From Mobula hypostoma (Eukaryota), in the NCBI RefSeq assembly GCF_963921235.1, contig NC_086097.1, positions 50,656,001 to 50,720,000 of the forward strand: DNA of 64,000 nt, read 5' to 3'. Made by a program: the position numbers and the translations under genes. The first letter of the stretch is position 1. Every line of letters starts with the position of its first letter. The notes beneath the pieces are model-generated. The model saw nothing but the letters and a program-made list of their open reading frames with translations, had not been told where the DNA came from and ran no database searches. This document shows positions 7,152-48,409 of the stretch, piece after piece.

Positions 7152-7295
7152 CTCAGCCAGATCTTCAAAGCAGCTTCCAACTAATGGATGAGGGCTGCTT
7201 TCATCCGTCATCTCAACAGTATCCTCCATTAAACCCAACAGCTTCACAGTCAGTTCATGAATATCCAAGATGTTACTGAAGATCACATCAATGTC
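7152..7295 (-). CDS. SOS2: SOS2 coding exon 6 (DH domain), 144 nt
   Basis: TTTTCTTAATAG|GAC...GCTGAG|GTATTT. Translates [48 protein letters not shown]. Confidence 0.96.
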
Positions 7296-8114: not shown

Positions 8115-10120
8115 ACATTAGATTAGATTCAACTTTATTGTCATTGTGCCGAGTACAGATACAAAGCCAATGAAACGCAGTCAGCATCTGACCAGAAATG
8201 CAAAGAATAGTGTTATTTACAAAATAACTGCGAATAAAAAGTAAGTGCTACAGCACACAGATATAAAAGTACTGACACAGAACAATATGGGTGCAATACT
8301 GCTTAGCGCTGTGATGTGAGGTTCAGCAGGGTCACAGCCTCAGGGAAGAAGCTCTTCCTGTGCCTGCTGGTGCAGGAGTGGAGGCTCCTGTAGTGCCTAC
8401 CGGATGGGAGGAGAGTAAAAAGTCCATGGTTAGGGTGAGATGCCTCCCTGATAATGCTTTTTGCCCTGCCCAGGCAGCGTTTATGGTAGATGTTCTCAAT
8501 GGTCGGCAATTGGGTGCCAATAATCCGCTGGGCAGTTTTCACCACCCGCTGGAGTGCCTTGCGGTCCGATACGGGACAATTTCCATACCACACTGAGGTG
8601 AAGTTGGTAAGTATGCTCTTAATGGTACAGCGGTAAAAGTCCGTCAGTATCCTGGGACAGAGGTGAGCTTTCTTGATGTTCCGCAGGAAATAAAGGCACT
8701 GTTGTGCCTTTTTGATCAGGATGGAGGAGTTCAGGGACCAGGTGAGATCCTTGGAAATGTGGACACCAAGGAATTTGAAGCTTGATACACCCTCCACTAC
8801 AGCTCCGTTGATGTAGATGGGGACATGGGTGTGGCTCCTAGCATGCCTGAAGTCCACAATGATCTCCTTGGTCCTCTGGGTGTTAAGGGCCAGGTTGTTG
8901 TCGGCACACCACGCAGCCAGGTGCTGGACCTCGTCCCTGTAGGCCGTCTCGTCATCCCCTCTGATCAGGCCAACCACCGTGGTGTCATCTGCAAACTTGA
9001 TTATGGAGTTAGCACCATGTACAGGAACGCAGGTTTTCATAGGTGAAAAGGAAGTACAGAAGAGGGCTCAGCACACAGCCTTGAAGCACGGCGGTGTTCA
9101 GGGTGAGAGTGGAGGAGGAGAGGTTGCCTAACTTAACTGATTGGGGTCTCTCAGTCAGAAAGTCCAAGGTCCAATTGCAGAGGGATCAGCTGATACCAAG
9201 CTGGCAAAGTTTGGCAATCAGTTTGGAGGAGATCACAGTATTGAATGCCGAACTAAAGTCAATGAACAGCATTCTGACGTAAGAGTTGGGCTGTCCAGGT
9301 GGGTCAGGGCAGAGTGAAGTGCTGTGGAGATGGCATCCTCTGTAGACCTGTTGGTGAGATAGGCAAATTGATGGGGGTCCAGGGTAGAGGGCAGACAGGA
9401 TTTCAGATGTGATAGAACCAGTCTCTCAAAGCACTTTGCAATGATGAGGGTGAGTGCAACTGGGCGGAAGGCATTCAGGCCCGTGGCAGTGGAATGCTTC
9501 GGCACTGGCACGATGGTGGCGATCTTGAAACTTGTGGGGACAACTGCCTGGGCCAGGGACAGATTAAAAATGTCCGTGAAGACCCTGGCCAACTGCACTG
9601 CACAGACTCTGAGTATACGGCCAGGTATTCCATCCGGACCAGCTGCCTTCTGTACATTCACCCTGCTCTGGGTGGCGCAAACATCGGAGGTGGAAAGTAA
9701 GAGAGGCAGTTCACCAGGTGGGAGATCCACTCTGAGGGTGACCTCCTTGTTCTCTTGGTCAAAGCGAGCGTAGAAGTAATTGAGCTCATCAGGGAGGGAA
9801 GCAGAGCTGGAAGGGGGCACAGTACTAGGTGGTTTGAAGTCTGTAATGACCTGTATGCCATGCCACATGCGCCGGGGGTCCGAGGAGTTGAAATGCTCCT
9901 CGATTCTCTGTTTGTATATGTGTTTAGCCTGAGAGATTCCCCTCCTCAGGTTGGCCCTGGCTAAGCTGTAAGCCTCCCGGTCTCCAAACCTGAAGGCTGA
10001 ATCTCTGACTTTGAGCAGGAGGCGAACTTCTCTGTTCATCCATGGTTTCTGATTGGGGAAAACTTTTATTTGTTTTTGTGATGTCACTCTATCTACACAC
10101 TTGTTGATGTGCTCAAGGAT
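8115..10120 (-). mobile_element. Rex-Babar-type LINE, ~2 kb, frameshifted RT
   Basis: ORFs 9233..10162 ([35 protein letters not shown]) and 8303..9040 (IKFADDTTVVG, PSGRHYRS). AATAAA at 8134-8139 and an (AATCT)n tail on the minus strand. Confidence 0.9.
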
Positions 10121-11203
10121 AATACTTTTGCTTGGAATAAAAGACTTCTTAGTAATATACAAGTTAATAACCTAGCTGCCATGAAAACAGACACAAGGCT
10201 TGCAAGAGAGAAGAGCTAGCTTTGTAAGTAAAAGATACTGAGTAAGTTATACTTGTACCAAGATAGGTGCTCTTACACAACAATTTCCCTCAACCAATGT
10301 CAAGAAAATATATTAATTAAAATCTCTGTTCTGTTGAGAATGTCTAACAGAATTATTTCTCCAATCACATTTAATTCATTTCATCCTGGTTTACAATTTT
10401 AGTTTCTCCAATAACAATTGATTACATGTCCACATTTAACACTTCCTATACTTTTCATCATTTTATACCACATAAGTTTTATTTTCAGCACAAGAAGAAA
10501 GTGCAATTATTTTAATTCTGTTAATAGAAAATAGACTATAGTCATCAGAACAGCTGGGGAAAAAAAATTCACATAAAATAAATAAATAAAGGAAAGTGAT
10601 TTGGAGCAATGCTTTAAACAAACCCAGAGGAAGGAGAAGAACTAGCTGAGAGTTTATGCAAGCAGATGTAGTGTAGCAATTGCTGTACACAAGGAAATAT
10701 TACTACAAAAGTTAGTGGAATTTCAGTGGAAAAAGTGATGGCAGTTTGATGATTTATATCCTAGAATGCTGAAGGAAGTCAAAGAGGAAATAGCAGAGAC
10801 TATGAGCCTATTTCTAAAATCATTTGAACAGAAGTTACGCCCAAGAACCAGGGAGATACCAACGTTACATCTATGCACAAAAAGGAAGACTGGGTGAACT
10901 GAGTAATTATAGACATGACATTCAACAACCACAATGTATAAATTTCTAGATGCCAAAGCAAAAATATAAGCATCGCCAAGAAAGACAGACATAATCACTA
11001 ATATTTCTAAAGGATATTAAATAGAATTCGTCACAAATAAAGGGGAGTTCTAACAAGGAGAAAGCTGAGCTCAAGAATTTTCAAATTCAACTTGTTAATG
11101 CAATTTATAAGATTAATGCACCAACATAATTGAAACATTAGGAGGAAAAGGCAACAGTAAACTCTAATTGGTAAAATAAAGCAAGAAGAGCAGAGTTCAG
11201 ATA

Positions 11204-12775
11204 CAGTACCTTCAAAGAGTATTCAGCCCCCAACCCTTTGTTCACATAAATGAGTATTACATCCAGCAATCTTAATCAACTTAACTTAGAAGTTTTATTT
11301 GTAGATCACATGCTTCTTTTTTCACAATAGAGCCCAAAAAACAGGGAAAATTGAAAAACTAAACATTCAAAAGCTGAAATATCAGCGGTTTAAAAGTATT
11401 CATCCCCCTTTGCTCAGTATTTAGTTGAACCACTCCTTGAACCTAATTTAGCCAGTAGTCTTTTTGGATAAGTCTCTACCTGCTTTTCACAACATGACAG
11501 CAAGATTTACCCATTCCTCCTAGCAAAATTGCTCAAGCTGTACCAGGTTAGTTGGGAAGCAGCAGTGGACGGCAATCTTGAGGTTTTGCCAGAGAAGTTT
11601 GATCAGGTTAAGGTCAGGACTCTGACTGGGCCACTCAAGCACATCAATTTTCTTCATTAGAAGCCATTCCATGGTTGCTTTGACAGGGTGCTTTGGGTCA
11701 TTATCCAGCTGAAAGATGAACTTCTTCTCCAGTTTAAACTTTCTAGCAGAGGCTAGCAGGTTTTTAATCCAGGATCTCCGTATTTAGCAGCATTCATTTT
11801 CATATCAATCCTGGCCAGATTTCCAGTCCTTGCTGCTGAAAAGCATCTCCATAGCGTGATGCTACCCCCACCATACTTCACAGTAGGGATGGTGTTACCC
11901 AGTTGATGCACAGCATGAGATTTACGCCACACGTACCACTTGGTGTTGAGGTCAAAATGTTCCACTCATCTGTCTACAATACTTTCTTCCATATCTTTAC
12001 AGTATCTGCTCAGTGACACTTTGCAAAGTCTTTACTGGCAAGCATATGTGCACTTTTTTTTAAAAAAGCCAAGGCTTCCTCCTTGCCAGTCTTCCATAAA
12101 TACCCTTTTTGTGCAAGGCCTTAGAGATCATGGAGTCATGAACTTCATTTCTAGTTACAGCCACTGATTTCTGCAGCTCACTCAGAGTGACTCTTAGCAT
12201 CACAGTAGCCTTACTGAGAAGTGCCATTCTTCTCTGGTGACTAAGTTTGGAGGGGTGGCCTGATCTCAGCAATGTAACTGTGGTTTCATATTTTTTTCCA
12301 CTTTCTTTACAGCAGATTGCACTGAGCTCCAAGGTATGTTCAGTGCCTTTGAGATTGTCTTGTACCCTTACCCCAGATTTGTGTTTCTCTGTCATTTCCC
12401 AGATGTGTCTTGAATGCTCTTATTTTTATTTTAGTTTGGTCAGTTGAAAATCTACCATATTGTTGGACCTAGCAAAGAGAAAGGGTATTTATTGTAATAA
12501 ATTTATTGAAAACAGGTGACCCTCCAATTTTCTACATCAACAAATTGGGGGAGTTGGTAAGGGAATACTGTTTATTGCACTTGTGGAAAGTTGGTGTAGT
12601 AATTACAAAATTTTGGTTTTTAATTTTTAGTAAATTGGGCAGGTTTTGGAATTTTTCTTTTGATTGGACATGTTGCACTCAAAATAATCCTTCTTCAATA
12701 TATTTTAAATTTAGAAAATGAGATGGTAAAATGTGAAAATAGTTGTGGGGGCTGAATACTTTTTCCAATGCATTG
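11204..12775 (-). mobile_element. Tc1/mariner DNA transposon, near full length, inactive
   Basis: TA then CAGTACCTTCAAAGAGTATTCAGCCCCC at left; inverted GGGGGCTGAATACTTTTTCCAATGCATTG at right. Broken transposase: ARRKPWL, PTVKYGGGSITLW.CFS, DNDPKH, WPSQSPDLNLI. Confidence 0.9.
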
Positions 12776-13520
12776 CACATACATCTTAAAAGCTTGAGAG
12801 GGAAGTCAGTTGAAAAGAAATAGCATTTCTAAATCAAAGCAAAAAAAAAGAGAGAGAGACAGAGACAGAGACAGAGACACACTTTATCAAAAAACTGGTC
12901 AAGTTTTAGGAAACTATTTGAGGTCACCAAAACTGAAGGGTACACTTCAGGAAAATTATTTCTGGCATATCAGTAATTTAGAATTAAAGTGAGTTATATT
13001 TTGTTTTACTTTTGTTATAATATGGATTGCAAAATCACTCAGGAAACAAGTATATTTTGATGGTCATTTTTTTTAAATTTCAAAGAGTATATGCAACTTG
13101 ATTAATAGTTTTTTCAGTGAGACATTGGCAAAACTAGGTGGACAAAAACTCCCTCTCCTCAAATTTCCCACTCTTTTACATCACTTTAAAATAATTTTGG
13201 ACACTTCATCAATGAAACATGTAAAACCTTTACAGTCCCTTAGGGTTTATCCTGTTTACCAGGTCAAGTCAAGAAAGTAGTAGAGTAAATTTATCATAGT
13301 ATCAGAGTGAATAAATTATACTGCTACATTTATAATAAAACATAAATTAGGAAAGAATAACATAAAATAAATTTCCACATGAAAATAAACAACAAAAATA
13401 TTAAACAGTTAAGCACATTCTTGTTCATAAAGAAACATTCAAACACATTCCAAGATTAAGGTAAAGCTAGCACAGTTACATTTCAATAATAATCTTTCTA
13501 TCAGCAATTTAACAACTTAC

Positions 13521-13724
13521 ACGAGCAGTAAACAGTTTGTTGTTGGATGCAAAAGGTTCCCTGAAGACTTTTATAATAAGATTCAATTCACGCAGATACT
13601 GCCTTTCCTCTGCAATTTCAGCTTTCACTAAGTCATAGTAATTCTGCTCATCGGTCACATTTGACCCATCATCTCCCAATGAAGATAGACCAATATCATC
13701 CTGGTCAAACATGTCCATCAGGAC
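13521..13724 (-). CDS. SOS2: SOS2 coding exon 5 (linker and start of DH domain), 204 nt
   Basis: TTTTCTTTTCAG|GTC...GCTCGT|GTAAGT. Translates [13 protein letters not shown]...[31 protein letters not shown]...[14 protein letters not shown] and [13 protein letters not shown] are SOS2-type rather than SOS1-type. Confidence 0.96.
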
Positions 13725-15574
13725 CTGAAAAGAAAATTGAGGCAAAGACTAATAATTTTTTAACATTTACTGTAAAGAAAAAAGTGCATTACCTTTATTT
13801 AAGAAAATGAAGACAACAAGTTAAAATTTAGATGCAAACACTGCTTCCAAATCATTTCTAGGTCAGGGGAGTTTCACCAGAAATTTTACATATCAAGAGT
13901 ATTAAAGATGCTTTAAAAAACTACACCGAACAGTAACAGACATAACAGTGATCCTCATCACCATAAACCTGCATTAAATCAGATATAGCTGCATTATGGA
14001 AATGCAGTCAACATTCATCTGTAGTGTACTAATAATGTATGGAGCCTTCCTGGATTTCAGCAGTTGAATAGAAGTTTTAGGAAAGACAGCAATGACATCT
14101 GACCTGTGATGCAAGGCACCCAAATATTTAGAAAATATACCAAAAGTGTACAGGGGAAGATTTTAACAAAAAGTCAAATTACAGATGAAATTAAAAGCTA
14201 GTTAGCAAATGAAATAAGAAGTGGATAGAAATGTGATGGTGGTGGCGGGGGGGGGGGGACTTGTCATATCGTCATTTGTCTGTATTCAAGTATATAGCTC
14301 AATAACAGTTGAACTTGAACTTCATTGATGCCATCAAAAGGCTCAGTCTTAGTAGAGGTAGGGTACAAGGAGTACGAAATATTTGTGGAAAATTTTGCTC
14401 ATTTGACTTGCCCTACATTAAAGCAATTCAGATAAAATTTAACTGACAATATTCTGATAATATTCACAATAAACTATTGAGAATCAGGTATAATGATATC
14501 TGTTGCTTTCACCTTTCCACAAGCTAAAAGATAAATAATAGCCAAATTAGTCTGCTTTCTGTGTTACAGCAGCAAGGTTTGCTGTTTAATTCAGTAATTA
14601 GCAGTCAGCAGTTCATGTCTTTAAAATATCCAAATGTCCTCCAACGCTAGACTCCACATGAAGAATTTTTGACAGCATTGACCGCAGGCCAAGTATAGGG
14701 TTGTGGTGTACTTGGCTGTTGGAGTTTTGCTCAATAGCCAAGATTTCAAGATTCAAGATTGTTTAATGTAATTTCCAGTACACAAGTTAAAGGAGAATGA
14801 AATAATTATTACTCTGGAACTGATGCAGCACAAAAAAAATACACAATAATAAAAAAAATCAATATATATATATATATTAATTAGATATATATAAAAATAA
14901 TAATGGTATGTCCATAAAGTGATGCTAGGCACTACAGGAGCATCTGTACTTAAGATGACTGACGGGAAGTAATAAAGTAGTGCTGGAAGGGGTGGGTTAA
15001 TGGCTGGAGGTGTTGATTAGCTTTAACGCTTGGGGATTTGATCTCACAGTATTAAAAACCCTGAACACAGGGCCACATTGCAAGAGATCAACATATTGGA
15101 GAAATCAAATTCCCACTGATGTTAGTGTGCTGTGCAAGTCTAAAACTTTCCTCAGGAGGTTGAGGTAAGCCTCCTGCACTCACTATGAAATGCACAGAGT
15201 GGAGTAATAAAATGCTCTGGAAATAAATCCACTACCATTTTAAATCCCCTTCAATGATGAGCTGATGCAGCCTTTCTCCGAGATAGAAGCAGCAGCTAAG
15301 TTACATTTCAGTTCTTCTGCTTCACCTAATCCATCAAAATCCAAATATTTATTCTTGCATCATGTAGGTCTTTCTCATCTGAATTTCCTGCCAATTGTAA
15401 GCCAGTCCTGCCAACTGCTGACCAACTTGCCAGAGTAGTAATTTTTCCTTCTTCAGATCTGTCTGGTCTCCCAAGCAGATCTGATCCCGACTGTCAAGGC
15501 CCTGCACAATATCTGAAAATACCCCATGGTTTAGCCAACTGTCAAAATGGATCACTATACCAGGCATGCTTCCT

Positions 15575-16010
15575 GGAGATAGAAGAGGCTGCAGATGCTA
15601 GAATCTGGAGCAAAAAAAAAGACCTGTAAAGGCAAACTTCAGCTGGTCTAGTTGCATCTGTGGGAGGCAAAGGGTTGTCCAACATTTCAAGTTGAGGCCC
15701 TCTATCAGGGCTGATGGCTGAGAGCAGAGAGGGTAAGTAGCCAATATAAGGAAGAGAATGATAGGGGTAAAATGAAGAGAATGATAGGGGTAAGCAGGTA
15801 ATGCATGGAACCAGGTGACAAGGGAGATAAAGATTAGATGGAGACAGGTGAGGAAGGAGAGAGTCAAAAGCCAATGGCAGATGGATAACAGGTAGAGACA
15901 GATAAGGGGCAAGTAAAGGGTGCAAATGGAGCCATGTGGAATGGAAGATGGGGGTGGAGGTAGAGATAGAGACAGAAAGTTGGTAAGTGGATACAAGGTG
16001 CTGCAGATGC
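15575..16010 (-). mobile_element. Degenerate Penelope-like 3' repeat
   Basis: CTGCAGATGCT...GGTCTAGTTGCATCTG family motif, decayed hammerhead at ~15672-15713, and a purine-rich 3' UTR segment. Confidence 0.55.
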
Positions 16011-16694
16011 TGCAGTCTGATAAGCAGCAGGTAAGTGTTAAATAAGACTTCTGAAAATTAAGAACATTTATAAAGTTATTGTCCAAACTAAATTAAACCG
16101 TTTAAAATGGATTTATTAGTCATCTAACTTTCTTGCAGCAGTTCCTCTCCACTCAACAGAAGGGACACCATTCTTCCCAAGTATGAATGCTAGGGAAATA
16201 CTGCCCCAAGGTGTCTGAATTCAGAACACAGTCTAAAAATTTTTGGCAAAGTGCAGATAACAGGTTTGGATTTCCACACCAACATAATTAAGTAACTATA
16301 CAAAGCCAATTTGAGATCAATAATCTGACAAGAGAAAAAAGTACAACAATGGAAGAAGTGCTACTATAAGGGTACTAAAAAAAAAACTATTATAGAGAAA
16401 AGAAATTAGCTTAATTGCTCCATTACCAAGAATGGAAATCAATATTACTATTTAACTATCACAGTACAAGGACATTGAAGTTTAGATGTACTGATGCTCT
16501 AAGCACTGAATAAGTAAAATGGATAAGTTTATTAACCCTCCTGCAATCACAATGGGATTCAGGAGCTTTAAATACTGATAAGAAAATATTACATTATTTT
16601 ATGAATAGACTAGGAGTAACAGTAAAAACGTAAAATGAACTGAGAAATATACATAAAACTACATACATGGTTTGTCTGCAATACAGCTGATTAA

Positions 16695-17102
<408 letters not shown>

Positions 17103-17179
17103 CTATATAAATTTTAAGCATGAAGATAGAAACTGCAGGAATACCTTGTGTCAGGTTAGCACCTACAAAGAGAGCACCT

Positions 17180-17898
17180 ACAACGAGATCTAGGTGTTCT
17201 TGTACATCAGTCACTGAAAGCAAGCATGCAAGTACAGCAGGCAGTAAAGAAAGCTAATGACATGCTGGCCTTCATAACAAGGGGAATTAAGTATAAGAAC
17301 AAAGAGGTCCTTCTGCAGCTGTACAGGGCCCTGGTGAGACCACACCTGGAGTACTGAGTGCAGATCTGGTCTCCAAATTTGAGGAAGGACATTCTTGCTA
17401 TTGAGGGAGTGCAGTGTAGGTTCACAAAGTTAATTCCCGGGATGGCAGGACTGTCATATGTCGAAAGATTGGAGCGACTGGGATTGTATACTCTGGAATT
17501 TAGAAGGCTGAGAGGGGATCTTATTGAAACATATAAGATTATTAAGGGATTGGACATGCTGGAAGGAGGAAGCATGTTCCCGCTGATGGGTGAGTCCAGA
17601 ACCAGAGGCCACAGTTTAAGAATAAGGGGTAGGCCATTTAGAACGGAGTTGAGGAAAAACTTTTTCACCCAGAGAATGGTGGATATATGGAATGCTCTGC
17701 CCCAGAAGGCTGTGGAGGCCAAGTCTCTGGATGCTTTCAAGAAAGAGGTGGATAGAGCTCTTAAAGATAGCAGAATCAAAGGTTATAGGGATAAGGCAGG
17801 AACTGGATATTGATTGTGGATGATCAGCCATGATCACAGTGAATGGTGGTGCTGGCTCGAAGGACATAATGGCCTACTCCTGCACCTATTGTCCATTG
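17180..17898 (+). mobile_element. 5'-truncated CR1-clade LINE 3' end
   Basis: ORF 17358..17813 (WSPNLRKDI...LRGDLIETYK...TRGHSL). Its 3' UTR closely matches the 5658-6682 copy. Confidence 0.9.
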
Positions 17899-19651
17899 AC
17901 AGAAAGAGTGAATGGTTCAAGTCAATAGCCATTCATCTCAAATCAGAAAAAGTTAAAACACTTTTTAAGATGTAGAGAAGGATAAGGGGAAAGGAAGGAA
18001 AGAGAAATAAATTGGAGAGAGCAAGTGACAAAATGAATGAAAGTGAAAAGTAAAAACACGTGGTAATAGGAAAAACAAGGCCAGAATGGCGATGTAAAAT
18101 CATGATCTGAGTTTACAGAAAAAGGGAAGAACTATAGTAAATTGAGTGCAGAAGTTCCTGCTCAGAAGACAAATTCCAATTCATCATAATTGTGAAGTAG
18201 CTAGAGGTAAGAGAGAACACATCAGTACTAAATCAAGACCTTGGCAAAAAAAACAACCAAATTGAGGAAGAAAAACTGCAATTTAAACAATTGTTGAAAA
18301 TAAGTCTTACTTGAGCCACTGAAACAAAAAATTAACAGATCAACAGAAAGATAGGCTAAGTGACAACCACAATTATTTACATGGTTGCATAGGGTCTCTG
18401 AAAGAGTAACTTACTTTTGAGCTTCTCTGAAGCATTTTGTATCTTTGCATTCTGAAAGCTACTATTTATGCTTTCCAACCCCCTGCTAAACTAACTTTTC
18501 CTTACTTCCCTCAACTCCTCTAATAGTGATCTTAAATTTATTACCTTCAGATACCTCTTCAAGAATCAGTTGATTTTTGAAATATCAATTTTTTTTAATA
18601 TAAAAGTTAAGCGATTAAACAAATTCAACTTGTCACTGATCTTCATACCCACAGAAACTCTTCAACTACCTTTAAAACCCGAATTAGGTTCATCCTGGAT
18701 CTCGTTATGAAAACATCCCAATTCTTTGACTGCTACTTAACATTTCATTCCTGCTAAAATTTGTGTGAAATATATCATGAGTTTGCCCAGAAATGCTTGC
18801 TATATTCTAATTATAATCATGACATCAACATTTTCCAAATATTCAACATCACTGCCTTTTTAAATTCAACACCCTTTCCAGATACATTATAAAATGATTC
18901 TTGAAATTTGAACAGAAATTCTTGAGGTTTTAATGAAAACATGAATATTTAATCCTCATCTCAGGCTCTTGAAAGAAATGGAAATCACAAATTCTGAATT
19001 ACATCCACGTTGATTCTGTTTTAATGCAATTCTCAAATCAGCATACTGATGGAAGATGCCGACACTTAAGGGATCAGTGATGGTGAACATCATAAAATAG
19101 TGCTATCAGGCAACACCGTCAAAGATTCATTGAAAGATGTCTAGCTGGATTTCACCATTACCACTCATCTTAAGATTACATCCAAGCTTTGACATCAAAG
19201 CAGCATTTGACCAAGCATGGCATCGTGGGGCCCTGATAAAGTAAAATCAATGAGTATCACAGGGAAACCAGTCAAACAGCTGCAATCATACCTCACGGTA
19301 AAACGAATGAGCTCGTTGAGATTAATCACTTCAGCGCCACACATCACTGTACGTGTTCCTCAGGGCAGTTGTCTCAGCCCCAGCCATCTTCAGCTCCTCC
19401 ATCAATGACTTCCTTCCAATAAGGTCAGAAGTGGGAATGTTTGCTGATAATTACACAAGTTCAATTCCCTTCACAACTCCTCAGCTAATGAAGCAGTAAA
19501 AGCTTGTTTTCAGCTATCCCTAGACAACATGCAGCCAGAGTGATAAGCAGCAAGTAACATCTGCACTACAGAAGAGCTAAACAATGACCATCACCAACCA
19601 CTTACCCTTAATATTCAATAGCATCACTATTGCTGAGTTAATTAACATCAA

Positions 19652-20170
19652 AGATGAAGCCACACTCAGGTTGGAGGAACAACACCTTATATTCCGTCTG
19701 GGTAGCCTCCAACCTGATGGCATGAACATCGACTTCTCTAACTTCCACTAATGCCCCACCTCCCCCTCGTACCCCATCCGTTACTTATTTATATACACAC
19801 ATTTTCTCTCTCTCTCTCCTTTTTCTCCCTCTGTCCCTCTGACTATACCCCTTGCCTATCCTCTGGGTTCCCCCCCCCCTTGACTTTCTCCCTGGACCTC
19901 CTGTCCCATGATCCTCTCATATCCCTTTTGCCAATCACCTGTCCAGCTCTTGGCTCCATCCCTCCCCCTCCTGTCTTCTCCTATCATTTTGGATCTCCCC
20001 CTCCCACTTTCAAATCTCTTACTAACTCTTCCTTCAGTTAGTCCTGACGAAGAGTCTCGGCCTGAAACGTCGACTGTACCTCTTCCTAGAGATGCTGCCT
20101 GGCCTGCTGCGTTCACCAGCAACTTTGATGTGTGTTGCTTGAATTTCCAGCATCTGCAGAATTCCTGTTG
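19652..20170 (+). mobile_element. Young 5'-truncated Penelope-like element: GIY-YIG C-terminus plus 3' repeat with hammerhead
   Basis: 19650-19751 translates KDEATLRLEEQHLIFRLGSLQPDGMNIDFSNFH*, a typical PLE ORF end. Hammerhead at 20040-20075. TTAACATCAA occurs at 19642-19651 and 20171-20180. Confidence 0.88.
20040..20075 (+). ncRNA. Minimal type I hammerhead ribozyme motif (PLE-associated)
   Basis: AGTC-CTGACGA-AGAGTCTCGGCCT-GAAA-CGTC-GACT: stem I AGTC/GACT, conserved CUGANGA and GAAA, loopless palindromic ACGT stem III, GUC cleavage triplet. Stem II is imperfect. Confidence 0.75.
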
Positions 20171-20264
20171 TTAACATCAATGTTGGGGATGAGGAAACTC
20201 CTGATATTTAACCACACCTGACACATATTGCTTGGCAAAAACAGAGGTTGGGTTTTCTGAAGCT

Positions 20265-23200
20265 AGTAACTCACATTCAAACAGACATGGGCCCTAGTTA
20301 CAGCTGTCTTTTTGTCAGATACATGGAACAATCCTTCCTCCTAATTTATTTGGGACCCCTTTCTCAACTCCATTACTTTGATGACTGCACTGAAGTCTCA
20401 TCTTGCATTCATATAGAACCAGAATTTAAAAAAAAACATACATTTTCTGCCAATTTCCAACCTGCTTCCACATTTCTGTGGTACACCTGACATGTCCCTT
20501 CCTGCATTTGTCTCCAACTCAAGAGAAGTTTTCATAGTTCACACCTTTTATAGCTGATGTGCTAACCTTTATAAAAGCTTGGCATCTTTAAGCCCAGATA
20601 CCCAAGCTACCTGGATCATGTACCCCTTCAAACTGCCTCCTATAAGGAAACCATTCCTTTGTACCCAGTTTATTTAGACCATAAGATATAGGAGCAGAAG
20701 TAGGCCATTCGGCCCATCGAGTCTGCTCTGCCATTCAATCAAGGGCTGATCTAATTGTATCCAATCATCCCCTGCTTTCTCTTCAAACCCTTTGAGATCT
20801 GAGATCTGAAATCCCCCTCATTCTCCTGAAATCCAGGGAATACAGCTGAAGAGCTGCCAGACGTTCCTCATACGGTAACCCTTTCATTCCTGGAATCATT
20901 CTCGGGAATCTTCTCTGAACACTCACCAATGTCAGTATATCCTTTCCAAATAAAGAACCCAAAACTGCCCACAATACTTCGAATGTGGTCTCACGAGTGC
21001 CTTATAGAGCCTATTGAGCCTCAACATCACATCCCTGCTCTTATATTCTATACCTCTAGAAATGAATGCTAGCATTGCATTAGCCTTCTTCACCACTAGC
21101 TCAACCTGTAGGTTAACCTTTAGGGTATCCTGCACAATGACTCCCAAGTCCCTCTGCATCTCTACATTTTGAATTCTCTCTCCATCTAAATAATAATCTG
21201 CCCATTTATTTCTTCCACCAAAGTGCATGACCATACACTTTCCAACATTGTATTTCAATCGCCTCTTCTTTGCCCATTCCCCTAAACTATCCAGGTCTCC
21301 CTGCAGGTTCTCCATTTCCTCAACACTACCCGCTCCTCCACCTATCTTTGTATCACTGGCAAATTTAGCCACAAATCCATAGTCCAAATCATTGACTTAC
21401 ATGGTAAAAAGCAGCGGTCCCAACACCGACCCTGTGGAACTCCACTGCTAACTGGCAGCCAGCCAGAATAGGTTCCCTTTATTCCCACTGTGCTTTCTGC
21501 TGACCAGCCAATGCTCTGCCCATGCTAGTAACTTCCCTGTAATTCCATGGGCTCTTATCTTGCTAAGCAGCCTCATGAGCAGCACCTTGTCAAAGGCCTT
21601 CTGAAAATCCAAGTACATCACGTCTACTGCATCTCCTTTGTCTACTCTGCTTGTAAATTCCTCAAAGAATTGCAGTAGGTCTGTCAGGCAGGATTTTCCT
21701 TTCAGGAAACCATGCTGGCTTTGGCCTATCTTGTCATGTGCCTCCAGGTACTCTGTAATCTCACCCCTAACAATCGATTTCAACAACTTCCCAACCACTG
21801 ACGTCAGGCTAACAGGTCTATAGTTTCCTTTCTGCTGCCTCCCACCCTTCTTAAATAGCGCAGTAACATTTACAATTTTCCAGTCATCCGGTACAATGCC
21901 AGAATCTATCAATTCTTGAAAGATCATTGTTAATGCCTCCACAATCTCTCCAGCTACTTCCTTCAGAACCCAAGGGTGCATTCCATCAGGTCCAGGAGAT
22001 TTATCCACCCTCAGACCATTAAGCTTCCTGAGCACCTTCCCAGTCGTAATTTTCACTGCACAAACCTCACTTCTCTGACACTCTTGAATGTCCGGTATAC
22101 TGCAGACGTCTTCCACTATGAACAATGATGCAAAATGTGCATTCAGTTCCTCTACCATCTCTGCGTCTCCCACTTACAATATCCCCAGCATCATTTTCTA
22201 AAGGTCCTCTCTCTATCCTCGACTCTCTTACCCTTTATATACTTAAAAAGTTTTTAGTATCTTCTTTGATATTAATCGCCAACTTCCTTTCATAATTCAT
22301 CTTTTCCTTCCTAATGACCTTCTCAGTTTCCTTCTGCAAGTTTTTAAAAAGCTTCCCAATCCTCTCTCTTCCCACTAGCTTTGGCTTCATGTATGCCCTC
22401 TCTTTTGCTTTTACTTTGGCTCTGACTTCACTTGTCAGCCACGCAGTGTCCTTCTTCCATTCAATTCTTATTTGGAATACATCTGTCTTGCACTTCCCTC
22501 ATTTTTTGCAGAAACTTCAGCCATTACTGCTCTGCTGTCCTTCCTGCTCATGTCCCTTTCCAGTCAACTTTGGCCAGTTCCCCTCTCAAGCCATTGTAAT
22601 TTCCTTTACTCCACTGAAATACCAACACATTGAAATTTAGTTTCTCCTCCTCAAATTTCAAAGTGAACTTGATCATATTGCGATCACTGTTCCCTAAGGG
22701 TTCCTTAACCTTAAGTTCTCTTATCACCTCCGGATCATTGCACAACATCCAATCCAGCACAGCCAATCCCTAGTGGGCTCAACAATAAGCTGTTCTAAAA
22801 AGCCATCCCTTAGACATTCTACAAATTCTCTCTCGAGGTCCAGTACTGGCCTGGTTTTCCCAGTCCACGTTCATGTTAAAATCCCCAATGGTTATCATGA
22901 CATTGTCTTTCTGACACCTCTTTTCTATCTCCTGCCGTGATTTGCAATCCACATCCCGGCTGCTATTTGAAGGCCTGTATACAACTGCCATTAGGGTCCT
23001 TTTACCCTTGCCATTTCTTAACTCAACCCATAGAGACTCTACACCTTCCGATCCTATGTCATCGCTTTCTAATGATTTAATATTATTTCTTACACTCAGG
23101 GCCACACCACCCCCTGTGCCTACTAACCTATCTTTCCAACAAACACACCGTATATCCTTGGACATTCAACTCCCAATGGCGGCCATCGTTTAGCCAAGTT

Positions 23201-24170
23201 TCAGAAATGGCCACAATGTCATACTTGCCAATCTGTAGCTGAATTTCAAGATCGTCCATTTTATTTTTTTTATATACTGCATGCACTCAAATACAACACT
23301 TTCAGTCCAGTATTTGTTGCTTTCTACTGCACCACACCTCTACTACCCTGTGAATGTGCCTCATCTCCTGCCTGTCCTTTCGATCATCTCTGTTACATAT
23401 ATTCCAATGCCTTCCCCTCTGATGTAGTTGAAATGTCCTCCTTTCTCAAACATAGCTTCCCACTCCTATAGTGGAAGGAGGTGTTTATCACATTTCCTCT
23501 ATGTCCTGCATGTCTACTCTTAATCCCTCCCCCGGGACAGAACAAAATTAAGAGTCCCACCCCACCAGCCTCTGCATTCACCATATTATCCTTGATCATT
23601 TCTGCCAGCACCAACACAATCCCACCAATTCTCACTTTTTCCCCTCTCCTTCCCTGTCCTCATTTTCTAGGGGCTGCTTATTTCATTAATTATTGGCCTG
23701 CTCTTGCATCCTCAACTGCCAACCCACCTCACAACAGTGCCCAAGGCAACCAGAGGAAATGAAACACTTGTCACTTATTCTCCTCGCTTCCTACCATCTA
23801 GATGATTCACTCACACTACTTCTAATCTTCTGTACTGCATTCAGTATTTACAATGTAGTCTCCTCTACAATGGAGAAACCAAATACAGATTGGATGATCA
23901 CTTTGCAGGACTCCTGCTCAATCAGCAGCAGAGATCCTCAGCTTTCTGTTTCATGCCGTTTCAATTCTCAACCCCACTCCCAATCCTGAGCATCTATCTG
24001 CAGACTCCTCACTGTCCAGGTGAGGCCCAAGGCAAACTAGAAAACAACATATTGTTCTTCTATTCTGAATTCTTCCCCCTTCCTTTCTATAGATGCTGCC
24101 AGACTTGTTGGAGTTCCTCCATTGTGTGTTGCTCCGGATTTCCAGCATCTGCAGAATCTCATACTTATGA
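20265..24170 (+). mobile_element. Degenerate Penelope-like element ORF (RT and GIY-YIG), split by a CR1 insertion
   Basis: MGPSYSCLFVRYMEQS...YFDDC (RT) at ~20285-20390. SNLLYCIQ...LLYNGETKYRLDDHF (GIY-YIG) at ~23820-23905. Terminal repeat motif at ~24090-24165. Confidence 0.78.
20676..23390 (-). mobile_element. CR1-clade LINE ORF2 (APE endonuclease and RT), disrupted
   Basis: ESLWVELRN...VVYRP...IGDFN (22779..23165); KSPGPDGMHP, NYRPVSLTS, SQHGF..GKSCLT, YLDFQKAFDKV (21448..22173); C-terminal ORFs 20932..21387 and 20783..20974. Confidence 0.92.
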
Positions 24171-25811
24171 GCAACATATTTCCTTTGTTCAGGCACTTCA
24201 CAACTTTTGGAGTTTTCCAACTTTGGGTGAACTGCATTCTGTTGTTTTCACCCCCATGCTTCTGCCTCTTTCTCACTCCGTTTCTTTAAAATCCCTAAGT
24301 CAGTAATAACGTTCTGATCACATCTAACCCGTCTTAGCCCATCTTCAAATTATCTTCTATCTTGTACCCCAGTCCTCTCCAGCTCTATTTTGAAAACTGC
24401 AAACCCACCAGTCTTCTCCCAAGTTCTCAGAAAGGGTCACTGACCTGAAATTTTAACCAGTCTCTCTTTTTACAGAAGCTGCTTGACTGAGTTCTTTCAG
24501 AATTTCCGTTTTAGATACCGACATCTGCAGTTTTATTTGCTTTTCCCCATTCACTTTCATCATGGACAAAGCAGCCCACTCACTGCCAGCCTATCTACCA
24601 CCAGTGTACTGCAGCTGCATCATGTAGATAACCACTTGCTTAGACCACTTCGACAGCAATGCTCAAAGCCAAAACCATTACCAAGAACAAGGCTATTAGG
24701 AGCATGGCAGTGCCACCACGTGGTGCAGAGTCCCCTCAAATTCATGCACGTAATCATTTGGAACTACACCACCATTCCTGCAGTGGCACTAGCTTAACCC
24801 TGGAACTCCCTCACCAACACCATCATGAGAGAACCTTGAACAGCAAGACTCTACCGTTCAGAAAGGTAAAGGATCATCTAGTATGGGCAACAACGAAATG
24901 AATAAAACAAAAAGAAATTCTGTGTTGCCCTGATTACACAAACCTTCCCCAACACCACTATTACGTTTATCCCCTCCCCTCCTCATCCCTCTTAGTAAGG
25001 ATAAAAAAACATGACACTTCCAGTGCAATCCAAATTTAAGCCACATCAAGCTTTAACAACTGTATCCTAGGCATATTTAGTCATTATTCAATTTTGTAAC
25101 AAATACTTCGTTTTCAAATCAAACAAATAAACTCCAGTTTTTTTTAACATTAACCTCATTCCAAATTAAACACAAAGTACGACTTTGACAGGTTCCAGTA
25201 ACTCGTTAAGCAAGAAATAGGAAATGGGCCTGAAGATTACAAACCTACAGAGGTTTTCACGGCTGCTACTTTGCAAAAATTTCTGCAAGTTCACTTTGGG
25301 ATTCAATCTTCATGAACAATTCTGGGTGAATGTGACATTTTACCCCATGATGCTATAGAAAGCCACATCTCACACTGCAGATGGCAAGAAAATTTATTTG
25401 CTTGCTAAGATATAATACAATGAATGTGTGAAGATAGCTAAATGATATTACTAATGGCACGACACATACCCATGTAAAAGATTACCCAAATAAATCTGAA
25501 AGGATTAAAAATTACAAACAAACATCACATCCACAGAACACAAACCACACCTTCAGCATCTCTTCCATTACAGAGTTCCCCAGAATACTGCCACCTCACA
25601 AAACAATCTGCTTTCCTGCTAGGTTTTTTTTCTAAAAAAAAAATAGGGCAAGACCCTGATAAGTGTATATTAGTACTGCATTATTGTATGCAATTAATTT
25701 CAAATATGCAAATCAAGTTTATTCATATTGCTGATCAGCATGCGATAACATCAGCCCCTCAAAACTAATCAATAAGTTCCTACACCTTGGCCTTAATACC
25801 TCCCTGTGGAA

Positions 25812-27060
25812 TTTAGTCATAGTTTATTGATCCTGGGGGAAATTGGTTTTCGTTACAGTTGCACCATAAATAATTAAATAGTAATAAAACCATAAATAGT
25901 TAAATAGTAATATGTAAATTATGCCAGGAAATAAGTCCAGGACCAGCCTATTGGCTCAGGGTGTCTGACCCTCCAAGGGAGGAGTTGTAAAGTTTGATGG
26001 CCACAGGCAGGAATGACTTCCTATGACGCTCCGTGTTGCATCTCGGTGGAATGAGTCTCTGGCTGAACGTACTCCTGTGCCCACCCAGTACATTATGTAG
26101 TGGATGGGAGACATTGTCCAAGATGGCATGCAATTTGGACAGCATCCTCTTTTCAGACACCACCATCAGAGAGTCCAGTTCCATCCCCACAACATCACTG
26201 GCCTTACGAATGAGTTTGTTGATTCTGTTGGTGTCTGATACCCCCAGCCTGCTGCCCCAGCACACAACAGCAAACATGATAGCACTGGCCACCACAGACT
26301 CGTAGAACATCCTCAGCATCGTCCGGCAGATGTTAAAGGACCTCAGTCTCCTCAGGAAATAGAGACGGCTCTGACCCTTCTTGTAGACAGCCTCAGTGTT
26401 CTTTGACCAGTCCAGTTTATTGTCAATTTGTATTCCCAGGTATTTGTAATCCTCCACCATGTCCACAGTGACCCCCTGGATGGAAACAGGGGTCGCCGGT
26501 ACCTTAGCTCTCCTCAGGTCTACCACCAGCTCCTTAGTCTTTTTCACATTAAGCTGCAGATAATTCTGCTCACACCATGTGACAAAGTTTCCTACCATAG
26601 CCCTGTATTCAGCCTCGTCTCCCTTGCTGATGCATCCAACAATGGCAGAGTCATCAAAAAACTTCTGAAGATGACAAGACTCTGTGCAGTAGTTGAAGTC
26701 CGAGGTGTAAATGGTGAAGAGAAAGGGAGACAAGACAGTCCCCTGTGGAGCCCCAGTGCTGCTGATCACTCTATCGGACACACAGTGTTGTAAGCACATG
26801 TACTGTGGTCTGCCAGTCAGGTAATCAAGAATCCATGACACCAGGAAAGCATCCACCTGCATCGCTGTCAGCTTCTCCCCAGCAGAGCAGGGCGGATGGA
26901 TGTTGAACGCACTGGAGAAGTCAAAAAACATGACCCTCACTGTGCTCGCTGGCTTGACCAGGTGGCACTCCAGTAGGCGAACCGGAGGGGATCTAAGTGT
27001 GGCCTGACCATAGGCCGGAGCAGCTCCAGAACAAGTCTCTCCAGGGTCTTCATGATGTGG
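25812..27060 (-). mobile_element. Rex-Babar-type LINE (second subfamily), long open RT C-terminus
   Basis: ORF 25948..27093 has VRVMFFDFSSAFN, GAPQGTVLSPFLF, LNVKKTKELVVD and RKSFLPVAIKLYN. AATAAA at 25823-25828 on the minus strand. Confidence 0.88.
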
Positions 27061-27094
27061 GAGGTCAATACCACCGATCCTCGACCTCCTCACT

Positions 27095-28425
27095 TGCAGA
27101 CCCCAGTCAGTTCACATTGGCAACAACATCTCCTCCATGGTTTCCATCAGCACAGGTGCCTCACAAGGCTGTGCGCTTTGCTCCCTGTTCTACTTGCTTA
27201 TGAATGTGTGGCTAAGCACAGCTCCAATGACATATTCAAGATTGCTGGTGACACCACTGTCGTTGGCCAAATCAAAGGTGGTGATGAATCAGCACATAGG
27301 AGGGAGATGAAAAATCTGTCTGAGTGGTGCCACAACAACAGCTCTCAGTCAATGTCAGCAAGACCAAGTAGCTATTATTGACTTCAGGAGAAGGAAACCA
27401 GAGGTCCATGAGCCAGTTCTCATGGAAGGATCTGTCCTGGGCCCAGCACGCAAGTACAATTAAGAAGAAAGCACAGAAGTGCCTCTACTTCCTTAGGAGT
27501 TTGCGAAGATCCAGCATGACATTTAAAATTTTGGCAAACTTCTACAGATGTGTAGTGGAGAGTATATTAACAGGCTGCACCACAGCCTGGTAGGAAAAAA
27601 ATCAATGCCCTTAAACTGAAAATTTGACAAAAAAAATAAATGGAGGTAAAGTCCTCCCCACCATTGACAGCATCTACATGAAGCGCAGTCGCAGGAAAGC
27701 AGCATCCATCATCAGGGACCCCCTCCACCCAGGACATGCTCTCTTCACGAAGGTGGTACAGGGGCCTCAGGACCCAAACCACCAGGTTCAGAGACAGTTA
27801 TTATCCCTCAGCCATCAGGCTCTTGAACAAAGTGGTTAACTTCACTTGCCACATCACTGGAATGTTCCCACAACCAGTGGACTCGCTTTCAAGGGCTCTT
27901 CATCGCATGCTCTCAATATTTATAGCTTATTTATTTATTTATTTATTACTAAATCTTTCTTTTTGTATCTGCAGTCTTTTTCTACACTGGTTGAATGCCC
28001 AAGTTGGTGCGGTCTTTCATTCATTCTGTTATGGTTATTATTCTATGGATTTATTGAGTAGGCCTGCAAGAAAATGAATCTCAGGGGTGTATTTGGTGAC
28101 ATATATAAAAAAGGAAGGTACGTCACATCCGGAGTTTCTCCGGTTAGCGGACGATTTCCCGCCACGCCTCTCTGACGTAGTGGGGTACCGCGTATGAGGC
28201 AAGTTACAGCAGTGGTTTGCCATTGCCTTCTGCCAAGTGAGTTTCTAAAGAGATCACCAGCTCGTAACCCAGCACAGATGGAAAGTGTGCAGAGGAGCCG
28301 GCTGGCTGGATTCAAACCCAGGACCTTTCATCCTGAAGTCCAACGCTGATGCCACTACGCCACCAGCTGGGTCAGTGGCATATATATATACATACTTTGA
28401 TAATAAATTTACTTTGAACTTGGAT
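27095..28425 (+). mobile_element. Degenerate Rex-Babar-type LINE 3' portion (SINE inserted in its 3' UTR)
   Basis: [34 protein letters not shown] and RFRDSYYPSAIRLLN fragments. Tail AATAAATTTACTTTGAACTT at ~28402-28421. Confidence 0.8.
28108..28374 (-). mobile_element. tRNA-derived SINE with an RTE-like segment
   Basis: Pol III box A TGGCGTAGTGG and box B GGTTTGAATCC on the minus strand. Internal GAAGGCAATGGCAAACCAC...CTTGCC. Flanked by GTGACATATATA (28096-28107) and GTGGCATATATA (28375-28386). Confidence 0.8.
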
Positions 28426-28827
28426 CCTGACAGTACAGAATGTAAATAACACAAAATGCTTCAATTAAACCTACAGACAGAGAAACCAAGTAATGCCATT
28501 AGATTCATTTTGCCATGTTAGTCGAGAGTCAAAGAGCCAAGACGCACAGAATAGGTTCCTTGGATCACTATGTTAATGCCAAACATCAAGAGAATTTATA
28601 TGTCATGGAAAACTTGCCACAATCAAAACCAATCCATTTGTAATAACTTAGCAGCTAATGCAGCTAAAGAATGTCAGAGTGCAAAATTAATGTTTAACAA
28701 GACTAAATACATATCCACATTACCAATACTTCATAGTGCACAAAATATTCTCAACCAGTTATTTGACAATTAAAATAAGCATTTAAGCAGTGTAATTCAG
28801 ATTTTATGTTATATTTAATGCTAATTA

Positions 28828-28989
<162 letters not shown>

Positions 28990-31900
28990 CTAAAGGGAAT
29001 GATATAAATAAACATATGCATCATAAATATAATGTCAGAATAAGTAATGAGTTTCATCACTCACCATCCATACTTCAAAATATCTTTTACTGCAGTAAAC
29101 TCCAAGATCCTCCAATATCAAAAACTAGAACAGATATTCCATAACCAGAATATTCAACTGAGAATCATTTGGAAGTTAGTGCCCATCAGTGAATTCCAAT
29201 ACAAATTCCATTGGAATAAATGCTTGGCTTGCAGTACCAATACAGAAAGCAATGTGTTAAAGTAACTAGCAAAACTCCAGTCAGCTATGCTTCTGTTTCT
29301 TGTCGAAAACTTTCACAACAATGTCTTGGCTTGGACTGCCAAGAAATTCTAGCACAGCAGTAGGGCACTGTCTCCTCTTTATGCCAAGTCTGAGTGGAAT
29401 AAATGTAGTCTGGAAAGATCAAGCACGAAGTTAAACAATTAATTTTAGAAAGTTTAGTGTCCTAGTTGGTTATGGAGCTGTGAAGACCACGTTATTCAAG
29501 GACTGACCAGGTTCTCCAGGGCAACATGCTACAAATTTCCCTGCAATGCTCCAAAAACACCAATGCATGAACAATTGCATCAACCCATGTGCTACTGATG
29601 CAGAAATAGCAACAAAGGAAATCACGTCTTGAAATCACACCTGAATATCCAAAATGAAGCAAGGCTGCTCAGAAGTGATCTTTATAGTGTTCAACTCCTG
29701 GAAAAAAAATAACTTTCCATTTTCAAACACTGAAAAAAAAGAGTAATTTCCACAACTGAATTTCAAAACAGATGCCACCTCACTGTGTGAGCCATTGACA
29801 AAAGATGCCTTTCATCAAAGAAAAATCAAACTCTTACCCAAAACTGTCCCATTTAATACACTAACAAATTCAGGTACTATTTATGAGTAAATTAATTATG
29901 TCGACCAAAAGCTTCTTGTAAACATAATGGAGAATTATTAGAAAAGTGACTTTGAATGCAATCTTGAACCAAATAATTACTTAGTCAAAAGCACTCAAAT
30001 AAACAGGATTGAAATGTATTTACTTCCCTTAACCAAGTAGATGCAGAATAGAAATAGATGTGGAAGTGCTAGTTTTTTTTTGTTATTGACTTAACATTCT
30101 GGTTAACATTTCCCAAGCCAACAAAACTTGTTAAAAATAAATACATAAATGGATGGTAGCAAATTTCAAAATCTACCAAGCACAGCAGAATCTTCATCTC
30201 CCATGGGGAACATCATCTTTCAACAAAAGTAAGCTGTACAAATGTGTCTTTTTTTTAGTTATCCATCTGTAATGAAGACCCAGGCTCATATCCTATTTTT
30301 GATTATATTTCTAAGGAAAGGTCTGTCTGCATTGACGCTGGCTGACCTGCTGAGTACTTTCAGCAAGTTCATGCAGTATCTACCTTAACTGTGTTCAGCT
30401 AACTTAGCGTTGGCTAGAGAATAAATCAGTATACAAGTGCCACAATGCTTTAGCAATCAAGTGAAGCATCAGTCACTTTATGTTTTTCAGTTTTAGTTGA
30501 CAACATTATAACTGATGTTACATTTATCATCTTCAGATACCTCTTTGACATCCAAATTATCCCTTTTGACATTACAACTGTAGTCACTATTTTAAATAAA
30601 TAATTTCAACTCAGTTCTTAACCTGTTCACTTCTTGTTTAATTCTCAAATGCCACAACCACCTTCATGATTGAATTTCTTCTCTCAAAAGGACTACTTCT
30701 AAAAGGTATTCTCAAATAAGTACTTTTATTTCCTCCCCCCAATGAATAACATTTGTATGTAAAATTTCTTCTGCTTTTTAAATCTGATAGGTTCAACTCT
30801 GCTAAATAAAACTCTTCAATGGTAATCTAAAAATTGAATATTGACAAAAGTACTGCTAAATCATTAACAATTAGACATTAAAATAAAGCAGCCAATAAAT
30901 TCTTTAGCTAATAGAAAGGCATATTAATTCAGCTATATGCAATGCATTTTCCCGAAGAGTGTGCCACTACAAAATTCCATAGCTGTAAAGTCAGAGTTAT
31001 ACAACACTGAAACAGGCCCTTCAGCCCGATTCATCTATGCCCACCTTCATCCGACTTGGCCCATATTCCTCTACTCTTTTCCTAACTGTCCACTTCTTGT
31101 TTTCATAAGTGGTGTGACTGTACCTGCCTCTACCACCTCCAGCAACCTGTTCCATATACCCAGCAACCTTTATGTGAAAGATTGGCCCTTCAGGTCTCCT
31201 TCAAATGTTTCATGACGTCTTCGCTCTTGTCCTCAATATCCCTGATTGTGCAAGTAAGCAAGGTACACAGCTTCTAACTGCCTTACCCATCTGTCTCGCT
31301 ATTTTCAGGGAGCAAAAACTTGCACTCCAGATCTCCCTGTCTGTCAACATTTCTAAAATTGCTGTCCAGCCAGTATCAGACAACCCAAAATGCAATAGCT
31401 CACTTGTCTGGATTAAATTTCAGTTTGATACTTTGAGGCCTTGAAAACCTTTAGGGTCAGATTACTAGTGATCAAGACTGAGGTAGCCATGTGAGATCAT
31501 CCCCATTATATTAGCTGACTTCCAAGTGGTGGGTGAAAAACCCTATTGTGAGATAAAACCACAGAAGTGCTCTGCCCTTGGATGCCAACCTGCATTTCTC
31601 CAAAATGCAAGTGTCACCAGATCAGAAAAATGAAAGACCCACAAAGAAAACTCTGTACTCCACATGGACAAGTTTCTGGCTCCTTATTTGATTTCCTATT
31701 TAAAATGTTTAATCTCGTAGAGCTCATACCTTTCACCCCATGACAGAATTTCTAGACCAATGAATTTCAAAACTCCCAAATTAATTAATTTGAGCTTGTT
31801 CTCAAAAATGTTAAATTAGTCTGAATTCAAAACAAATTGAATTCTATACTGACATCCGATATCAATGTAGAATCGGAGTAAGCAATTCAGAGCAAGCAGT

Positions 31901-32089
31901 CTGATGGTGTGAATATGCTCTTGGTCTCTAAGTTGCTGAGAATCCAATACAATAATCAATTAGTACAAGCTTACTTCTGCAGACCAAGTTACACAGAATT
32001 ACTTATGTAAGATAATTCAAACAGGCAGCCAAAAATATGATCAACTGCAGCAATTGACTTAATAGGAAATACTCAAGGATTGATTAAAT

Positions 32090-48345: not shown

Positions 48346-48409
48346 ACATCAAAGCAGCGCTATCAGTTGAAAAAGCCATTATATTTCCATAACACACACA
48401 AAAAAAAGA

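Follow-up and report, generated by a model that had tools for sequence, protein, structure and literature searches.

Decayed ends of an abundant Penelope-like element with a minimal hammerhead motif in the introns of SOS2 of Mobula hypostoma

SOS2 and its intronic repeat copies

The window analysed here is a 64-kb stretch of the Mobula hypostoma genome (contig NC_086097.1, positions 50,656,001 to 50,720,000), and it lies within SOS2, as the sequence-only reading had proposed. Six coding exons were located on the minus strand (Table 1), their AG/GT borders are visible in the sequence, and the open reading frame (ORF) at 17102-16755 matches Son of sevenless, with SOS2 of sharks, rays and chimaera as its best named relatives. 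A six-frame search of the window for the first coding exon (first 26 residues) gave a best score of 31 of 145, indicating that this exon is absent. Because it is located outside the window, the 11 of 21 repeat matches beyond 34285 would belong to intron 1.

The window and ten shuffled versions of it were searched with an iterated nucleotide profile seeded with six copies, at a threshold of E<=0.01. We obtained 21 matches to one repeat end in the window, 20 of them below 1e-4, and none in any of the ten shuffles. A recognisable copy is present at each of the 11 positions where the hammerhead motif had been seen by the sequence-only reading, although its figure of about ten copies is an undercount given the 21 matches of the profile against none in shuffled sequence. 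The hammerhead sequence is kept in 14 of the 21 matches, comprising 13 distinct copies and one identical duplicate, and the remaining seven consist of the downstream part without it. The matches are distributed over both strands, with 10 on the minus strand (SOS2 sense) and 11 on the plus strand (antisense). They include five pairs of divergent inverted partners (2356/2426, 16694/16741, 43182/43899, 48408/48501 and 58565/58844) and a local 577-bp tandem duplicate with one mismatch (the 44476 copy), which puts the number of insertion events in the window at about 14-15. Of the 21 matches, 12 extend as far as the profile does, while the other nine stop 10-29 positions short; in all five inverted pairs the long end is found on just one arm, the signature of the tail of Penelope-like elements (PLEs). 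Target-site duplications (TSDs) were detected at p<0.05 in three of the 13 insertions examined, and the search gave nothing above chance in the other ten. The Rfam scan that had been proposed as a check returned no hammerhead family from the window at E<=5, its three matches all belonging to unrelated families. A strict hammerhead descriptor likewise gave 0 matches in the window, and an exact 24-nt motif scan gave 0 in viral contigs and 0 in metagenome contigs.

Table 1. Features located in the 64-kb window (a dot marks features on both strands).
Position	Strand	Feature	Basis or remark
2928..34285	-	SOS2, six coding exons	sawfish SOS2 mapping
34285-34145, 28989-28858, 17090-16917, 13727-13521, 7310-7152, 3047-2928	-	SOS2 exons	sawfish SOS2, 92-98% identity
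2356..2525	.	old inverted pLTR-end pair (2356-2419 minus, 2426-2525 plus), hammerhead core decayed	profile, fold
3431..3552	-	short solo copy starting at hammerhead outer edge, core intact	profile, alignment
15591..15724	-	old copy, ~33% diverged, core changed	profile, alignment
16685..16870	.	inverted pLTR-end pair, 10-bp TSD (p 0.005)	profile, TSD search
19642..19651	+	left TSD copy, 10 bp	p ~0.03 relative to random window pairs; jump in read depth at edge
19652..19751	+	5'-truncated C-terminal end of GIY-YIG endonuclease ORF, PLE of Neptune type by motifs	E 3e-25 to P0122
19752..20039	+	pyrimidine-rich 3' untranslated part of pseudo-LTR (pLTR)	sequence, read depth
20040..20075	+	minimal type I hammerhead motif	antisense to SOS2
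20076..20170	+	conserved 3' pLTR part including optional terminal tail, ~30-35 nt	profile, depth, TSD search
20171..20180	+	right TSD copy	TSD search
23438..24528	+	old PLE remnant	profile, protein match
30326..30370	+	small pLTR tail fragment without hammerhead	profile
37220..37334	+	short solo copy, truncated within hammerhead core	profile, alignment
43182..44850	.	inverted-pair insertion	profile, protein match, repeat search
46412..46518	-	91-bp solo copy, 8-bp TSD, starts at hammerhead outer edge	profile, TSD search, fold
48408..48581	.	inverted pLTR-end pair	profile
55040..56668	-	longest remnant	profile, protein match
58565..58950	.	old inverted pLTR-end pair	profile
62675..63040	-	copy with weak ORF-end trace; deletion took GAAA and cut site (62756 copy)	profile, protein match

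The 20040 motif sits inside a 519-bp insertion (19652-20170) with a 10-bp target-site duplication at both sides. The insertion opens with the final codons of an ORF, to which proteins from two rays are the most similar. Its hammerhead comprises a 4-bp stem I (20040-43/20072-75), the core CUGACGA (20044-50), an extra unpaired A (20051), the stem II region (20052-63), GAAA (20064-67) and the palindrome ACGU (20067-70), with the predicted cut after C 20071. All parts that this copy had been said to keep, namely stem I, CUGACGA, GAAA and GUC, are thus present, together with the extra A and the palindrome. In stem II, 20053 and 20062 form an A x C mismatch and the closing pair is G·U; for this copy no stem II hairpin is predicted (0.0 kcal/mol, pairing probability <0.1). 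The A at 20053 is private to the copy, since G occupies this position in 97-99.8% of depth in two DNA runs, and this majority base restores the predicted pairing of helix II (probability ~0.9). Being a plus-strand copy in a minus-strand gene, it is antisense to the SOS2 transcript. A contig from a second organism, spanning 20151-20500 at ~98% identity with 0.79 of the sampled words present and only ~20 letters on the element side, fewer than needed to bridge the junction, is suggestive of the same insertion in that organism.

Copy lengths in the window form a continuous spread from ~45 to 1600 bp. In the longest remnant, pieces of the reverse transcriptase (RT) thumb, the linker and GIY-YIG (56668-56036) precede a decayed hammerhead (55137-55099), and the 3' UTR between ORF end and hammerhead includes ~62 copies of an 11-bp GA-rich unit (55313-55968). 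The old remnant at 23438 retains linker and GIY-YIG pieces (23438-24063) and a pLTR tail (24078-24152), with a second decayed pLTR and its hammerhead trace at 24414-24528. At 43182-44850, a GIY-YIG end (43867-43639, minus) precedes the pLTR that belongs to it (43301-43182); the inverted pLTR (43899-44031, plus) is duplicated in the 577-bp tandem (second copy 44476-44608), and all three cores are changed. This tandem (43694-44850) is either the product of a local duplication in the very recent past or an artefact of the assembly. Three short copies (3551, 46512 and 37220) start at or just inside the hammerhead outer edge, not at the cut site. The two arms of the inverted pair at 16685-16870 meet close to the predicted cut site and are both readable as starting there; a 6-bp palindrome is centred on this cut site. 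We rejected this inversion junction (~16750) as a record of cleavage, because fold-back at the 6-bp palindrome gives the same junction and three parses are possible.

Only two of the 13 distinct copies, 3551(-) and 20040(+), keep all 11 scored core bases, both in type I core order closed by a 4-bp stem I; the other 11 are core-changed. For 2426+ and 24414+ the alignment is shifted by one base, which inflates all rates, although both are core-changed by eye too. The unpaired A between positions 9 and 10.1 is found in 11 of 13 copies as aligned, the ACGU palindrome in four of the seven copies folded, and the G10.1-C11.1 pair in the window majority sequence and in 46512. The 3551 copy, the sole core-intact one on the SOS2 sense strand, has a mismatch in stem II and has lost the palindrome of helix III. 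The 46512(-) copy has intact stems with U4 and G5 changed, and in the 58690 copy the 3' arm of stem I is missing. None of the window copies is predicted to be an active hammerhead. Measured against their own majority sequence, the 12 main-family copies are 7-20% diverged; four old copies reach 26-33%, a fifth old copy being aligned over 26 bases only. In the oldest copies (2426-2525, 24414-24528 and 58565-58950), A stands for G at the fourth pair of helix II, giving U-A for U·G, and two of the oldest hint by eye at a fifth pair closing a 3-nt loop.

Conservation of the core in excess of its surroundings, which had been anticipated, was not observed among the window copies: outside CpG, mismatches affect 25/126 core and 128/573 tail positions (Fisher p 0.63). 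The CpG columns are twice as decayed (23/50 mismatched). This pattern fits neutral decay after insertion, and the window copies are silent on selection in the active lineage.

The parent element and its hammerhead

The ORF remnants provide the identity of the element. That three copies lie 3' of a GIY-YIG ORF end was borne out by matches to the closest protein, P0122, at 19548-19847 (E 3e-25), 43867-43639 (E 5e-9) and 56668-56036 (E 6e-18), which belong upstream of the hammerheads at 20040, 43290 and 55137, respectively. A weak fourth remnant precedes the 62756 copy (63040-62981, E 0.27), and an older one is found at 23438-24063 (E 1e-6). A protein profile search recovers three of these five regions, missing 43867-43639 and 63040-62981. 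P0122 itself matches Pfam GIY-YIG only weakly, at E 5e-4 and under the curated threshold, and its full-length relatives carry RT accessions and, in many cases, GIY-YIG accessions. A CX2-5CxxC linker is present in P0122 and in 54 of 55 full-length relatives, with a decayed trace at ~56300; this linker is reported to mark Neptune and Nematis, and to be absent from Penelope/Poseidon (PMC8557442). Because the assignment is made by motifs, the element is best described as a putative Neptune-type PLE. Two traits of endonuclease-bearing (EN+) PLEs are seen, an RT followed by a C-terminal GIY-YIG endonuclease (in the remnants and full-length relatives) and a pLTR with an inverted 5' partner and optional tail (in the five inverted pairs). 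Both the optional tail and the inverted partner have been described for PLEs (PMC8557442, PMC11167929).

Other retroelement remnants surround these copies. About 100 bp past the young insertion lies a much more decayed PLE RT fragment (20275-20490, plus), collinear with the linker and GIY-YIG pieces at 23438-24063; because of this collinearity, an old PLE was probably split there by a LINE insertion (~20680-23165). LINE remnants with RT matches form two groups, one at 5669-6690, 17181-17896, 20813-23165, 32095-33800 and 60439-60775, and the other at 1773-2330, 8303-10171 and 25948-27339. Members of the second group that were scanned have a Pfam ALKBH8_N match as well, and a stretch of 387 codons is still open in one remnant.

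We then considered 88 loci encoding relatives of the ORF, consisting of the best 80 of 520 metagenomic loci and eight from genome bins. A strict descriptor identified 14 motifs in their 327,360 bases and none in 20 shuffles. The end of the ORF is reached in 45 of the 88 loci, six of which have too little downstream sequence, leaving 39 that were scored with a core search allowing one mismatch and requiring no pairing. A sense-strand core was found 82-148 nt past the ORF in 27 of these 39 loci, drawn from the best 80 of 520 and the eight from bins, and was not found in 12; any antisense core match was seen in four, against the 27 in sense. The first three pairs of stem I are formed in 76 of 81 cells across the 27 core-selected loci. 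When these matches were grouped by eye into eight families, one of which (L053) is probably a chance match, 24 of 24 stem I pairs were formed, whereas permutations that swapped arms between families averaged 14.5 pairs, and 1 of 10,000 of them reached 24 (fraction 1e-4). The covariation of stem I, put forward earlier as a check on the motif, therefore holds across related elements. A mixed alignment of 18 rows has 88% of cells paired (0 of 500 shuffles) and compensatory changes in nine of ten pairs, but is illustrative only, as 11 of the rows were chosen by a descriptor requiring pairing. Across the 27 loci, 22 have G10.1-C11.1, 24 have the extra A and 20 have CG at 15.2/16.2. The covarying stem I at a matching position in related loci argues that the motif is a conserved, structured feature of this element lineage. 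The earlier identification of minimal type I hammerheads carried by PLEs is likewise upheld, since layout, GIY-YIG ORF ends and relatives agree with published accounts (PMC4209133).

Two observations concern the related loci themselves. At L070, L072 and L081-L084, a group of related PLEs, several copies ~100 nt past the ORF carry C rather than U at core position 4 and are intact otherwise, which is possibly a natural core variant. Two assemblies labelled as bacterial MAGs have contigs with PLE ORFs of animal type (L081-L088), a sign that eukaryotic sequence may contaminate both bins.

Abundance, mechanism and alternative readings

The family is extremely abundant. One DNA run contains 188,942 contigs matching the element, 34,032 of them at least 99% alike over the matching part, confirming the high-copy family envisaged by the sequence-only reading, and the family is equally massive in runs of two other organisms. 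When depth is summed, the hammerhead exceeds the unique flank ~1.5 million-fold, or ~47,000-fold under the harshest overlap correction (word overlaps counted 31 times), ratios that give an order of magnitude only and not a copy number. Given the matching contigs of this one run, the density of copies in SOS2, previously regarded as notable, is probably not special, and it is accompanied by no strand bias.

The 20040 copy belongs to a subfamily distinct from the 12 main-family copies and departs from nearly all contigs at 3 of 519 bases (from 40 of the 77 differences). Recent activity of the family had also been suggested. Judged from these few differences and the 10-bp TSD that is kept, this is supported for the 20040 subfamily only; it does not extend to the other copies, which are 7-33% diverged.

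The reading we favour, with a probability of about 0.88, is that the window copies are dead, 5'-truncated ends of an abundant Neptune-type PLE, each with a minimal type I hammerhead in varying decay, and that intact elements likely cut a tandem precursor as a dimer. According to this model, PLE transcripts would be tandem, as taken from the literature, and the ACGU palindromes of two tandem copies would pair to form helix III, allowing the core of one copy to cut the other after GUC, possibly only with the element protein bound. Reverse transcription would have two alternative start sites downstream of the hammerhead and would mostly end prematurely, which is proposed to explain the short copies and the inverted partners, and after insertion the copies would decay neutrally. 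Minimal hammerheads in vitro are reported to show no cleavage as monomers and weak cleavage as dimers (PMC4209133, PMC6765202), and cleavage in an Anolis PLE needs the element protein (PMC11167929). The role in precursor processing is offered as a hypothesis because catalytic mutants of the Anolis hammerhead left insertion in vitro unaffected (PMC11167929).

This last result also bears on an alternative that we consider doubtful, in which cleavage is no longer needed in the top subfamily and the hammerhead-derived motif survives either as a signal, structural or for protein binding, or as a passenger. Naiad PLEs are reported to amplify without canonical hammerheads (PMC8557442). In three DNA runs T at 20063, creating G10.1·U11.1, accounts for ~72-78% of depth, in a depth set that is biased towards contigs resembling the query, and the change weakens the predicted stem II hairpin from -5.1 to -2.5 kcal/mol. 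Against it, the G·U-closed stem II still forms at a probability of ~0.9 when G is at 20053, no core base appears among the 40 of 77 differences, and position 20063 is C in 3/3 contigs of one RNA run, which has seven contigs on the element (contigs do not show RNA ends). The position lies in a CpG when stem II is in its G-C form. The G·U pair is the remaining oddity, since G-C rules in relatives (22 of 27), although variation at 10.1/11.1 is less surprising because natural compensatory changes at these positions are described in cricket hammerheads (PMC2837043). An unlikely further reading is that the youngest and most amplified subfamily swapped G10.1-C11.1 for G·U, that stem I begins on a splice acceptor, and that splicing toggles the ribozyme. 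In the 20040 copy, the pyrimidine tract ends just before the AG at 20040-20041, which by sequence resembles a splice acceptor, and a tract with AG at the start of stem I occurs in several window copies; in Drosophila Penelope an intron is likewise described as ending at the start of stem I, with pyrimidine tract and AG (PMC4209133). No spliced read at this AG was found among the seven RNA contigs of the one run, and tract and AG are absent by eye before stem I in related PLE loci. An RNA contig joining 19693 to 20041 was rejected as splicing, because 23 of its letters fall on one side and the join lacks a GT. If the subfamily swap were true, old G-C and young G·U subfamilies of tens of thousands to ~1 million copies would form a natural experiment, asking whether retrotransposition needs PLE hammerheads at all.

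The short solo copies (~90-130 bp) invite a different reading, in which they would not be extreme 5' truncations but a non-autonomous family of their own, SINE-like or retrozyme. The starting point of 3551, 46512 and 37220, on or slightly within the 5' edge of the hammerhead, would suit it, as would a preprint deriving animal retrozymes from PLE pLTRs and finding them in one chondrichthyan (bioRxiv 10.64898/2026.07.22.740005); yet their sequence runs on into GIY-YIG ends in longer copies, lengths are continuous, and there is no tandem array of intact units, the lone tandem being the local 577-bp duplication with dead cores, which makes a separate family unlikely. The chance is close to negligible that SOS2 is enriched in copies and that their self-cleavage within introns controls its pre-mRNA. 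There are 21 fragments in 64 kb, and seven hammerhead-bearing copies lie on the SOS2 sense strand, including 3551 with its core; but strands are balanced, the flagged 20040 copy is antisense, 3551 has the stem II mismatch and no palindrome, the core is no better conserved than the tail, monomers of this class are reported without cleavage in vitro (PMC4209133), and the family is massive genome-wide in DNA-run contigs. The window copies are therefore likely ordinary decaying intronic repeats, with likely no effect on SOS2.

Comparison with known hammerhead-bearing elements

This kind of motif is already published. Minimal hammerheads have been reported in Xena, Poseidon and Neptune PLEs of fishes, with thousands per genome in coelacanth and Xenopus (PMC4209133). 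As in those PLE hammerheads (Cervera and de la Pena 2014, PMC4209133), the motif described here is of type I with a short helix I, an unpaired base between 9 and 10.1, G10.1 opening helix II, and a palindromic 15.2-16.2 without loop 3, and it lies within the pLTR; most copies are likewise solo and decayed, with opposite-strand pairs 100-700 bp apart. Helix II is 4 bp here, in contrast to 7-8 bp in Schistosoma, copy number appears higher on a rough estimate, and U occupies 11.1 in most depth. The main text of that study names no cartilaginous fish, although its supplementary tables may. In the literature searched, no title describes the motif in sharks or rays, although supplements may list chondrichthyan elements, and the main text of a shark-and-ray genome preprint (10.1101/2025.06.08.657570) contains the whole words 'PLE' and 'ribozyme' 0 times.

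With Neptune EN+ PLEs (Craig et al. 2021, PMC8557442) the element shares the C-terminal GIY-YIG, the CX2-5CxxC linker and the CCHH residues in the closest proteins, as well as 5' truncation, partial tandems, an inverted 5' partner and a 30-40 bp tail at one end. A pLTR hammerhead and two alternative 3' ends (the tail) are also known from Anolis Poseidon (Frangieh et al. 2024, PMC11167929), which belongs to another clade and whose ORF starts inside the hammerhead, whereas no conserved open frame is seen by eye in the decayed copies of the window.

Animal non-LTR retrozymes (bioRxiv 10.64898/2026.07.22.740005) carry a type I hammerhead from PLE pLTRs as well, and are reported in the one chondrichthyan sampled. 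They form tandem arrays with a complete hammerhead per unit, whereas the copies here are dispersed and tied to ORF ends; the sole tandem of the window, 43694-44850, has two identical dead cores, and no hammerhead array occurs among eight tandem-repeat rows. For ribozyme biology, the family is a resource rather than a discovery. Its very many copies, once dated, together with subfamilies differing at the closing pair of helix II, would permit population-scale tests of selection on the core, of how 5' breakpoints lie relative to the cut site, and of dimer cleavage.
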